Below the pieces are notes generated by a model. The model saw only the letters and a list, made by a program, of their open reading frames with translations, made no database searches and was not told where the DNA came from. DNA of 13,324 nucleotides from Fidelibacterota bacterium (GTDB lineage: Bacteria > Fidelibacterota > Marinisomatia > Marinisomatales > TCS56). Positions 4,704 to 8,462 of the stretch are shown here, piece after piece. The stretch spans positions 1 to 13,324 of the forward strand of contig JBDRBK010000071.1 of assembly GCA_043822705.1 (NCBI GenBank), written 5' to 3'. The first letter of the stretch is position 1, and every line of letters starts with the position of its first letter. Made by a program: the position numbers and the translations under genes.

Positions 4704-5189
4704 ATGGAATTAAAAAATACCATGAGCATTAAAAATTTGTCAGCCGCCGTAATAATCTGCCTGCTGATCGGACTAAGTTCCTGTGATAAAAACGAGCCCG
4801 AGAATGGCAGCTTAAAATTGGATGCAATCGACTATACAGGGTGTTTTGTTGATCATCCTGAATACACATTCAAGATGGCGCAAGCCATTACGGACACCCT
4901 GTTTTTTTCGATCGAGCAGAATACTTTGTGCCTGAATATGATTATTAACTACAATTGCTGCGGGCTGTTGAGCGATTCCGTAGTAACTGACAACCGCGAA
5001 GTGAATATTTTTATTGCCGACACCTGCCGTGAATTTTGTGAGTGCTGGTGTATCTGCGATTATGGATTTGAATATAAGTTTACCGGTTTTCAGGGGGGGA
5101 ATACCCATTTTTCCATTTACCTGAAACCGTTGAATGACAGCCAATATCAATTCTGGAACGATATAATCTTCATTGACGGGTCGGATTGA
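4704..5189 (+). CDS. Cys-rich predicted lipoprotein, function unknown
   Basis: AGGAGG at 4693-4698 before ATG 4704; signal peptide with lipobox LSS-C; Cys pattern YTGC...NCC...CREFCECWCIC; more AT-rich than its neighbours. Confidence 0.8.
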   Translation: MELKNTMSIKNLSAAVIICLLIGLSSCDKNEPENGSLKLDAIDYTGCFVDHPEYTFKMAQAITDTLFFSIEQNTLCLNMIINYNCCGLLSDSVVTDNREVNIFIADTCREFCECWCICDYGFEYKFTGFQGGNTHFSIYLKPLNDSQYQFWNDIIFIDGSD

Positions 5190-5197
5190 AACCAAAA

Positions 5198-5461
5198 CGG
5201 GCGCAGGCCTCCGGGACGCACCGTCCACTCCCCTTCACTGCCCGTTCGCACCTGCCGGACCAGCCGTTCCCGCCCCCCGGATCACGCGGCCTGCACCCCC
5301 GGAACACCCGTTCCCTACCGGTGGAACGGTCGTTCCACACCCCCTGACCGTGCGGTCGCGCCCCCCGGAACATACCTTCCCTGCCCCCGGAACTACCGTT
5401 CCAGACCGGCGGATCGCCTGGTCAACACCTGCGGACTGCCCTTTCCCACCCCTTGGAACGA
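5198..5461. repeat. Degenerate tandem array of 22-bp palindromic units (about 12 copies), consensus ccGTTCC-N8-GGAACnn
   Basis: Units start exactly every 22 nt with no indels, e.g. 5264 ccgttcccgccccccggatcac, 5308 ccgttccctaccggtggaacgg, 5374 accttccctgcccccggaacta, 5396 ccgttccagaccggcggatcgc, 5440 cctttcccaccccttggaacga. The first two units (5198, 5220) are weak. Confidence 0.9.
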
Positions 5462-5532
5462 CTGGTTAAAAGCCTGGGAAGGCAGGCGGCAATGCCGTTA
5501 AATTTCCCATTATGCAGCAGCAGGGGTAAGCG

Positions 5533-6594: not shown

Positions 6595-6778
6595 GCCGTC
6601 TCGCGCAAAAACTTCTTTCAAAATCAACCATTTCCGGTGTAGAATTCGTCGAATCGGTAAATGGGTAACTACGAGTCTTCGAATTAAAAATTACAATTTT
6701 AGTGAAATACTCCGGTTAAAACGCAGTTGTAAGTGTGTCGAGTGTTGGAGCACGTGGCAAAATTTGGTGAGCAAATAA

Positions 6779-8284
6779 ATGTTGAAAAAGAAAGATTCAA
6801 GAAAAGACCCAAAAGAGTACATGGAACTAGCCGTTGAGGTTATGAAAGAATCAATTCCTGAACGGAAGAAAAACGATCCAAGCCCTTATGTTGGAGCAGT
6901 ACTTGTTTTTCCAGACGGAACAGTGGAAACTGCTTACAGAGGGGAACTACGGGAAGGTGATCATGCCGAATATACCCTGCTCGATAAAAAGAACCAACAT
7001 AAGGAACTTTCTGATTGCTGGCTTTTTGTTACACTGGAACCCTGCGCCCCCGGAGCCAGGAACGAACCTAAAGTAAGCTGTGCTGAACGAATTGTCAACG
7101 CAAGAATTTCAGAGGTGTGGTTTGGTATTGAAGATAAAAACCCCACTATTGATCATGCAGGAATTGAACACCTGATTGAAAACGGAGCAAAGGTACATCA
7201 ATTTTCCCCCGAGTTTCATAAGGAGATCGAAGAAATAAACAAGGAATTCATGAAATGGGCTAACATAAAAAACAATGAAGCTAAAGCAAAGATACAAGCC
7301 CCTGACCATTTAGATAAGCGTGCAATAGCCACCAACATGGACAGCTTATCAGAAGAAGCCCTTCAAAAATTCATAACTGAATCTGGAAGAAACAGCACTC
7401 CGAGATCCAAAGAATTCCTGCAGGAACTCAAGGAAATGGATTTATTAGAGTATAGTGAAAAAACTAAAAACTATTTACCTACAGGAAATGCCATACTTCT
7501 CTTTGGCAAAAACCCAAGAAATAAATTCCCACAATCATCTGTAAAAGCAAAAGTCCAGTATCCTGACGGGAAAACGGGTACTGCAACTTTTGATGATGCG
7601 CTGGTATTAGTTCCTGATAAAGTTGAGGAATGGTTACTTAAAGTGTTGCCGGCAAGTATTGACCGTAAACAGTTTAAAGCTAGGCAGGTCCCTTCCTTCC
7701 CGGTTGAGGTAGTCAGAGAAGCTATAATTAATGCCATTGCCCACCGAGATTATGCCAAAGGCGGTGCAAAAGTACAGTTGGATATATTCAACGATAGAAT
7801 TTCAGTTAAAAGCCCTGGTGAACCAGTTCCACCGATTACTATTGAGGCAATGAAGAACTTTACAGCTACTTCCTACAGCCGTAATAAAAAACTAACCTAT
7901 ATTTTCAATGAAATGGATTACATGGAGGAAACAGCTATTGGCATGGAAACTTATAAATCAATCCGTGAAAAATACCAATTACCCCTTCCGATTATTGATT
8001 TTGATGGGCTTAATGTAGTGGTAACATTTCCGAGAACTATTGAGGCTGTTAAAAAAATTGGCGGCGAGGCTATCAGTATGCTTACAGAGGCTCAAATAAT
8101 AGGGTATGAGTGGCTCAATGCAATTGGTGAAGCGAGTACCCGTGAATATTCTGCTCATTTCAATATCGGGTATAAAACAGCTCAAAGACACTTGGCAAGA
8201 ATGAAAGAACTTCACCTCATTAGCGATAATGGAGAAAATAGTAATTCGCCTAATTACAGGTACGTTGTTATTAACGTTAAATAG
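6779..8284 (+). CDS. Fusion: RibD-like Zn-dependent deaminase + HATPase_c_4 ('RecG C-terminal') domain + winged HTH
   Basis: N-terminal PSPYVGAVLV, HAE (aa 62-64), VTLEPC-x11-C; central NAILLFGKNP, FPVEVVREAIINAIAHRDY, IFNDRISVKSPG, SYSRN; C-terminal STREYSAHFNIGYKTAQRHLARMKELHLI...YRY wHTH. Confidence 0.88.
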   Translation: MLKKKDSRKDPKEYMELAVEVMKESIPERKKNDPSPYVGAVLVFPDGTVETAYRGELREGDHAEYTLLDKKNQHKELSDCWLFVTLEPCAPGARNEPKVSCAERIVNARISEVWFGIEDKNPTIDHAGIEHLIENGAKVHQFSPEFHKEIEEINKEFMKWANIKNNEAKAKIQAPDHLDKRAIATNMDSLSEEALQKFITESGRNSTPRSKEFLQELKEMDLLEYSEKTKNYLPTGNAILLFGKNPRNKFPQSSVKAKVQYPDGKTGTATFDDALVLVPDKVEEWLLKVLPASIDRKQFKARQVPSFPVEVVREAIINAIAHRDYAKGGAKVQLDIFNDRISVKSPGEPVPPITIEAMKNFTATSYSRNKKLTYIFNEMDYMEETAIGMETYKSIREKYQLPLPIIDFDGLNVVVTFPRTIEAVKKIGGEAISMLTEAQIIGYEWLNAIGEASTREYSAHFNIGYKTAQRHLARMKELHLISDNGENSNSPNYRYVVINVK

Positions 8285-8286
8285 CA

Positions 8287-8377
8287 TGGACAGGCACATG
8301 GACAAGATGTCCAAGCTGTTGATTATATATAAAAGGACATAGCAAGGTTGGACATAGAGTTGGACATTGTGTCCAAG
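8287..8377. repeat. Duplicated module TGGACA-N6-TGGACA-N3-TGTCCAAG (2 copies 62 bp apart) plus one extra GGACAT
   Basis: TGGACA at 8287, 8299, 8349, 8361; TGTCCAAG at 8308, 8370; GGACAT at 8335. Confidence 0.9.
8312..8324 (-). promoter_or_regulatory. IHF-consensus binding site
   Basis: Minus strand AATCAA-CAGC-TTG exactly matches WATCAA-N4-TTR, next to an AT tract (atatataaaa), at the end of the first repeat module. Confidence 0.55.
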
Positions 8378-8400
8378 TACAAATAATAAAAAGCACAATA

Positions 8401-8462
8401 CTCCAACAATGGCTATGAATCACAGTGCTATGCACCGCACTTCAAAGCCAGGTCTTTTAGCA
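8401..8462 (+). other. Degenerate attC-like imperfect hairpin
   Basis: CTCCAAC-aat-GGCTATGAA ... GTGC-tat-GCAC ... TTCAAAGCC-aggtct-TTTAGCA; outer arms pair 8/9; the expected terminal GTT reads TTT. Confidence 0.4.

Follow-up and report, generated by a model that had tools for sequence, protein, structure and literature searches.

What is a deaminase doing on the same polypeptide as an ATP-binding module and a winged helix-turn-helix (wHTH), and what could hold such an enzyme in check? The question is raised by a 501-aa open reading frame (P0001) at 6779..8284, on the forward strand of the window (by which we mean the whole stretch of DNA analysed, 13,324 nucleotides long). The earlier note on this DNA had recognised an intact Zn-deaminase site, an HATPase_c_4 module and a C-terminal wHTH, and all three were recovered. 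The Zn-dependent deaminase domain covers aa about 11-165 (6809..7273, forward strand; Pfam and PDB matches and conservation), with dCMP_cyt_deam_1 matched at aa 11-116 (E 2.5e-12) and an active site formed by H62-A63-E64 and P88-C89-x11-C101, as had been read from the letters. The GHKL-type ATPase core (7718..8029, forward strand) comprises the E314/N318 motif, SPG at 345-347 and HATPase_c_4 (PF13749) at aa 329-417 (E 2.7e-17), the REAIINAIAHRDY motif lying at aa 313-325. No Pfam model matches the wHTH of the 501-aa protein (aa 437-497; 8087..8269, forward strand); its presence rests on an AlphaFold2 model and on the best Foldseek match of that model, 3LMM/DIP2311 (followed by RibD/RibG), together with the covariation with DNA sequence described below. 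In the model, helices at 437-449, 454-461 and 465-477, the last being the recognition helix, are followed by a strand pair, with the wing at 482-496 and a pLDDT of 82-94 over aa 431-500. The model as a whole is moderate (pLDDT 67.9, pTM 0.46) and the packing of the domains is therefore not interpreted; a homodimer prediction scored 0.00, which is evidence neither for nor against a dimer.

The gene sits, as the note had it, alone in an AT-rich island. The GC content of the inserted patch at 6651..8450, which contains the box array described below as well as the gene, is 0.397, against 0.585 and 0.58 in its flanks and 0.527 in the genome, and its neighbours within the window are ordinary ones (DJ-1/PfpI, cupin, DUF3795 and a GIY-YIG-like ORF), the downstream gene being convergent. 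Pfam finds no rib gene among these neighbours, in agreement with the note, and neither Pfam nor PADLOC finds a defence system beside the fusion gene within the window. The same genome carries a second deaminase-GHKL-wHTH gene, 40% identical, on contig C82 (L010:10426-11955), in a lower-GC patch at the contig end that adjoins panB/panC-like genes.

The best sequence and fold matches of the deaminase domain are RibD/RibG, and an unusual RibD-type riboflavin deaminase has therefore to be considered. RibD models cover aa 14-162 only, with TIGR00326 scoring 52.8 bits against a cut-off of 156, and Pfam finds no C-terminal DHFR-like reductase (RibD_C) in the 501-aa protein, which bears out the earlier description of a RibD-like deaminase lacking its reductase. 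Neither ribA, ribE nor ribH turned up in the assembly, which is 93% complete and has two copies of the fusion, and a separate full RibD scores above cut-off in 21/28 other hosts. No rib gene occurs among the 125 of 128 neighbours scanned at homologue loci, so that the riboflavin operons proposed as a refutation of the effector idea did not appear. In a quick tree, 34 deaminase domains of the family and one prophage domain form a clade with support 100, apart from 27 RibD sequences. The base pocket differs as well: the Asn of the RibD NP motif (27/27) is replaced by Ser or Asp in the family (S35 here), and the strand-2 His of RibD (27/27) is Arg in 34/34 family domains (R54 here). The CxxC insert of the 501-aa protein has no His, the residue conserved there in RibD/RibG deaminases (PMC3239186 Table 1). 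The fusion thus shares with RibD/RibG the helix-4-division CDA fold and the HxE and PC-xn-C motifs, and differs from them in reductase, clade, base pocket, basic residues and context. A riboflavin role is rejected on the host, clade and separate-RibD evidence, and we regard it as extremely unlikely.

Family-specific basic residues may indicate what the enzyme acts on instead. Besides R54 they include R58 (31/34), K98 (30/34) and R94 (33/34), which lies five residues past the first Cys like K79 of RibG, and D119 (34/34) is equivalent to D101 of RibG. In the accessible part of the RibG study, K79 contacts phosphate and D101/N103 contact the ribose hydroxyls (PMC8256712). With the K79 and D101 equivalents kept and R54, R58 and K98 added, we infer by analogy that the substrate would be phosphate-rich and ribose-bearing, namely an NTP or RNA.

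The remainder of the protein is best understood from its Schlafen-bearing relatives. As described in the available part of the RzAgo report, PF13749 is a GHKL ATPase in which E314 and N318 bind the ATP gamma-phosphate and Mg, and ATP binding drives formation of tetramers that assemble the Schlafen nuclease; the same source counts 60,692 SLFN-GHKL proteins, most of them small or with a short HTH (10.64898/2026.05.29.728809). HisKinase-HTH proteins make up 19.2% of prokaryotic Schlafens according to the accessible part of a second survey (PMC13056530). The 501-aa protein carries the same E314/N318 motif as RzAgo (the numbering is identical by chance), unchanged in 120/120 listed best homologues and in 66/66 of a second set, and ATP-driven assembly is therefore proposed for it as an analogy. 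Pfam finds no N-terminal SLFN/AlbA_2 (PF04326) match, the deaminase standing in its place. An intact deaminase of its own clade thus replaces the Schlafen RNase on a GHKL-wHTH chassis, which lends comparative support to the effector swap suggested earlier, PF13749 and the wHTH having been kept. The likeness to Schlatpase/Schlafen-HisKinase-HTH proteins (AlbA_2, PF13749 and wHTH; DIP2311, 3LMM; RzAgo) lies in the GHKL E..N motif and the C-terminal HTH, as well as in spread by transfer and in lodging in RM and BREX islands, which both do; the fusion differs in having a deaminase for the Schlafen tRNase and in lacking an Argonaute sensor. The fusion would then work like a Schlatpase-HTH effector, yet it is not a member of that group as it has no Schlafen domain. 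One locus (L035:4604-8146) has a deaminase fusion next to a canonical AlbA_2-HATPase_c_4 gene in a tandem arrangement, and the boxes after each of the two genes are of a type of their own. The annotation of some plasmids pairs the GHKL chassis with DUF4062, which is probably a further swapped effector (hits H23-H25).

The fusion is not peculiar to this genome. Among the matches listed, each of the 120 best homologues is a full-length fusion (65-88% identity), with H62, E64, C89, C101, E314 and N318 conserved in 120/120 and P88 in 119/120. At least 77 clusters at 50% identity have this architecture, full-length proteins with both domains making up 77 of the 150 best cluster representatives; 73/77 keep the deaminase motifs. 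Loci from GTDB genomes come from Bacteroidota, Balneolaceae, Ignavibacteria, Planctomycetota, Clostridia, Calditrichota, Desulfobacteraceae and a Thermoplasmatota archaeon, and a full-length copy was found in 1/40 relatives of the source genome, which itself has two. The family is widespread, patchy and horizontally spread. No full-length copy occurs among 72,556 plasmids or 50,697 phage records; IMG/VR yielded one deaminase-only gene, and in the ESM Atlas there were only deaminase clusters of a generic kind, below 0.9. Database names for the homologues are 'RecG' or 'ATP-binding protein'.

The same deaminase clade also occurs on other proteins. It forms the N-terminus of NACHT/STAND NTPases of ~1,210 aa (P0270-P0280), a position that is the usual effector slot of NACHT proteins in the available part of a survey that does not mention deaminases there (10.1101/2022.07.19.500537), and in one case (P0281) it is joined to a PIG-L deacetylase. 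On a viral contig (L142:4282-5316) it makes up the end of a 344-aa protein whose neighbours, judged by eye, are cell-wall-hydrolase-like and SMI1-like ORFs. Four members of the fusion family (P0125, P0153, P0160 and P0256) are extended at the N-terminus by a further domain of 135-185 aa, which Pfam does not match in those scanned, and P0160 and P0256 begin with a CxxC...CxxC ribbon.

Immediately after the fusion gene lies an array of short boxes (8284-8378). It consists of two units on the forward strand, 62 bp apart, each made of two direct 9-bp boxes and an inverted one at a 12-bp period: unit 1 (8284..8316) has boxes at 8284-8292, 8296-8304 and, inverted, 8308-8316, and unit 2 (8346..8378) has them at 8346-8354, 8358-8366 and, inverted, 8370-8378. 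The first base of unit 1 is also the final one of the stop codon. Arrays scoring at least 52/72, a threshold set after the first scores had been seen and above the control peak of 49, follow 76/89 distinct homologue 3' ends having enough downstream DNA, against 0/83 homologue 5' ends, 0/280 other gene ends and 0/89 shuffles. The two units are 60-64 bp apart in 73/76 arrays. At up to 3 mismatches, the 9-3-9 palindrome is found at only these two sites in the 3.3-Mb assembly; the window copy having no further cognate palindrome, there is therefore no regulon, and a global one is rejected. A generic repeat finder did not have the array among the repeat families listed. The C82 paralogue has its own array of another box type, so the two paralogues of the genome carry different boxes; the GC-rich palindrome of that copy has a few near matches elsewhere, which are presumed to be chance.

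To what does this array correspond in the protein? We calculated corrected mutual information between box bases and all protein columns for 75 proteins (about 49 effective). The best partners are wing residue 491 for base 1 (z 7.3), wing residue 493 for base 2 (7.2), helix residue 469 for base 5 (6.2) and helix residue 470 for base 8 (6.4), with no clear partner for bases 3 and 4. This agrees with the usual wHTH geometry, in which the wing reads outer bases and the helix inner ones. Among the pairings, E469 goes with C5 (15/15), S469 with A5 (8/9), R470 with C8 (64/64), P491 with A1 (53/53) and N491 with G1 (6/6). Part of this covariation is linkage, because the box and the wHTH codons are adjacent. 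On a tree of the core, where the pairs are cassette swaps, they go in the right direction with sign-test p 0.001-0.06 for four rules and 0.5 for residue 470, a further rule having two pairs only; a tree of the wHTH offers 1-3 independent pairs only and no test on it is significant. Most likely the wHTH recognises, at the 3' end of its own gene, a cognate DNA array that travels with it. The note's idea that the ATP-binding/wHTH part senses or regulates is to that extent incomplete, the array having gone unnoticed there.

The wHTH and its array are exchanged as one cassette, independently of the core. The window protein and that of L034 are 76% identical in the core and 20% in the wHTH, with different boxes; relative to L093 the values are 54% and 73%, with the same box. 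In FastTree phylogenies, the core tree requires 14 changes of wing type and the wHTH tree two. Identity to L013, L034 and L037 is 64-88% before the aa 426-450 bin and 12-48% from there on, which places the exchange junction at approximately aa 425-440 (8051..8098, forward strand). In 10/69 loci there are, beyond the array, leftover palindromes of a different type, against 1/495 control windows. Such leftover arrays are found for instance at L014, L037, L038, L104 and L109, and at L038 an older allele survives downstream of the gene as its 3' tail, boxes included.

Related boxes are found on the chassis in the absence of the deaminase. Three boxes at an 11-12-bp period lie near the gene end in 10/21 PF13749 genes without a deaminase (control gene ends, 0/137); in 9 of the 10 they are in frame before the wHTH, 8 of these as four-residue repeats. 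Loci with PF13749-wHTH genes of this kind, repeats just before the wHTH, are L045, L048, L049, L050, L051, L209, L231 and L232. A four-residue repeat is a 12-bp repeat in the DNA, and these may be boxes within the gene; they could alternatively be plain linkers. The accessible parts of the RzAgo report and of the second Schlafen survey (PMC13056530) make no mention of a cognate DNA array.

Does the family keep company with defence genes? A named system was scored on a PADLOC match to one of its components at E<=1e-20, housekeeping look-alikes being removed by the author's judgement. By this rule 12/28 GTDB loci have a named system within three genes (RM I/II/IIG, SIR2-HerA, AbiE, Gabija or Hma; Wadjet at L037, seen by Pfam only, was left out of the count) and 16/28 have none. 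A named system lies within one or two genes at 22/50 mostly divergent metagenome loci (134 of 142 neighbours scanned) and at 2/28 loci picked arbitrarily, as a control, in the same 28 genomes (140 of 141 proteins scanned). Fisher tests against the control give p 0.004 for 12/28 and 0.0007 for 22/50, loci being non-independent. If all PADLOC matches at E<=1e-20 are counted, look-alikes included, the difference is 14/28 against 7/28 loci (p 0.097), or 28/125 against 12/140 by protein (p 0.002). The enrichment near defence islands for which the note had proposed a test is therefore seen for named systems. At 9 loci the fusion gene immediately precedes hsdR, at 3 it is placed between pglX and pglZ, and Schlafen-kinase-wHTH back-up effectors occur in such BREX loci according to the available part of one study (PMC12839542). 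Other copies, including that of the window, are solo insertions among housekeeping genes, and PADLOC gives no system match for the 501-aa protein beyond partial chassis matches to pAgo-associated models. The defence context suggested earlier thus holds for homologue loci, in comparative tests, and not for the window copy, which has no defence neighbour.

It seems rather probable that the fusion is a stand-alone, horizontally spread back-up module for abortive defence against phage, consisting of a single protein and a DNA element in cis. From architecture, context, array, covariation and swapping, all compared by sequence, we infer binding, restraint, trigger, oligomer and substrate as follows. 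The effector would bind its own 3' array, and this would limit or idle it; infection would lift the restraint, the trigger being a guess by analogy; ATP-driven assembly, by analogy with RzAgo, would turn on the deaminase, which might spoil the ribonucleotide pool or tRNA (again a guess by analogy). The diversity of boxes would prevent cross-binding between paralogues in one cell. The pairing of box and wHTH points to an undescribed restraint of a toxic defence enzyme. A more specific version, which we put forward tentatively and would sooner doubt than adopt, makes the array a DNA-encoded antitoxin and infection sensor, such that loss or displacement of the site by phage would activate an ATP-driven deaminase oligomer and swaps of wHTH plus array would reprogram specificity.

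Much of this evidence could be read in other ways. The array might be the antitoxin of a selfish addiction module, the protein being idle while bound to its own site, loss of the locus freeing the toxin and defence islands being merely convenient landing sites. A single gene with no obligate partner, a cognate site in cis only, leftover boxes of other types (10/69 loci) and solo insertions among housekeeping genes, such as that of L014 between folP and cdaA or of L028 inside a polyketide cluster, are all in keeping with this; enrichment next to, and within, operons of RM, BREX, Gabija, Hma and Wadjet is not, nor is the absence of full-length copies from the plasmid and phage records, where addiction modules would be expected, and we judge this reading unlikely. 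The question of a partner arises from a DprA/SLOG-like (PsyrA-like) ORF or fragment of ~150 aa located just downstream of the array in 19/79 loci (among them L021, L022, L030, L031 and L037) and absent from the window, numbers on which an obligate two-gene system is rejected. The boxes also resemble a classical operator (a palindrome plus a direct repeat) and the genes that follow are often defence genes read in the same direction (hsdR, pglZ, SLOG), as they would be if the wHTH controlled transcription of the next gene with the deaminase and ATPase domains as nucleotide sensors. Against such a regulator stand the invariant catalytic Glu and Zn ligands; moreover, which gene comes next differs freely between loci, that of the window being convergent, there is no second site in the genome, and boxes lie near the gene end in 10/21 non-deaminase chassis genes, mostly in frame before the wHTH. 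This role is unlikely.

The preferred reading, restraint of a defence effector by its own array, has also to be set against two explanations that start from the DNA. That the array is mainly a site of recombination or mobility driving exchange of wHTH tails, without control of the enzyme, would account for the sharp exchange junction, the stacked leftover arrays (10/69 against 1/495) and the older tail kept at L038. The junction lies in the linker, though, about 200 bp upstream of the array rather than at the boxes, no recombinase is a regular neighbour, and the residue-to-base matching fits readout by the wHTH, so this is quite improbable. A deaminase fused to a site-specific DNA-binding domain might also be a tethered mutator acting on bases near its own locus, the more so as the Pfam Inv-AAD model (AID/APOBEC-like) scores above cut-off for several family members, if below it for the 501-aa protein. 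In coarse tests the box deviations are not enriched in C>T/G>A or A>G changes, the G-over-C skew does not differ between spacer, downstream and upstream DNA, and the Asp that binds the ribose hydroxyl is kept; a mutator is very unlikely.

How does this module compare with known ones? Deaminase defence effectors include dCTP deaminase, AvcID and RADAR, the chemistry of the last being better described as ATP-to-ITP deamination than as RNA editing. Kongming KomA and CRISPR-linked ATP deamination are likewise described, in the accessible part of their report, as base deamination against phage (PMC13434031). The fusion would resemble dCTP deaminase, AvcID, RADAR and KomA in base deamination against phage, mostly on nucleotide pools, and differs from them in partners and architecture, none having a GHKL switch with a wHTH and none being known to have a cis DNA element. 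PrrC-type effectors are back-ups for type I RM, C-boxes and AbiEi sites sit at promoters, and lacI offers a case of roadblock autoregulation. The fusion is like PrrC in its position just upstream of hsdR at nine loci, like C-proteins and AbiEi in pairing a DNA-binding protein with a site of its own that has diversified in specificity, and like lacI in a possible roadblock at its own gene end; it differs from C-proteins and AbiEi in that the site is 3', belongs to the effector itself and is exchanged together with the wHTH.

A search of the full-text literature, with supplements and most subscription papers outside its reach, returned no description of the fusion or of the array, although the architecture could be listed in comparative-genomics tables. 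The accessible parts of PMC3710099, PMC13552941, 10.64898/2026.10.19.760177 and 10.1101/2022.07.19.500537 contain nothing on the fusion family. These data add what would be a new clade of deaminase effectors on GHKL-wHTH and NACHT chassis, and a naturally occurring library of paired wHTHs and boxes that apparently follow a residue-to-base code. They also provide a candidate, testable answer to the role of the HTH in Schlafen-kinase-HTH proteins, which are very common. Restraint of an immune effector by a DNA site of its own would be a control principle that we have not found described for defence systems; DNA acting as antitoxin would, if true, be categorically new, and its logic would extend to many of the ~60,000 Schlafen-GHKL proteins, the four-residue repeats being in-gene boxes.

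Some smaller observations concern the ends of the patch and its surroundings. A scan for promoters and terminators gave results at chance level, and no integron integrase (IntI) was found above cut-off. Matches in sequencing runs are short low-depth pieces only, none of them informative about expression or the array. A GC-rich intergenic stretch with short repeated words lies at 5173-5469, between the lipoprotein-like and cupin genes. A weak, possible decayed attC-like hairpin at 8401..8455 on the reverse strand, single-copy in the genome, has a fold z of -2.5 (4/200 shuffles being equally good), and 7 bases of it (8401-8407) are complementary, again weakly, to 6744-6750 upstream of the gene. 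In an integron cassette, the R'' of attC is complementary to the R' site at the 5' end of that cassette. An exact 8-base integron-cassette-like signature is present in 5/81 homologues against 0/81 crossed pairs, and integron-cassette-like ends flank some copies, for example those of L018, L067 and L070.
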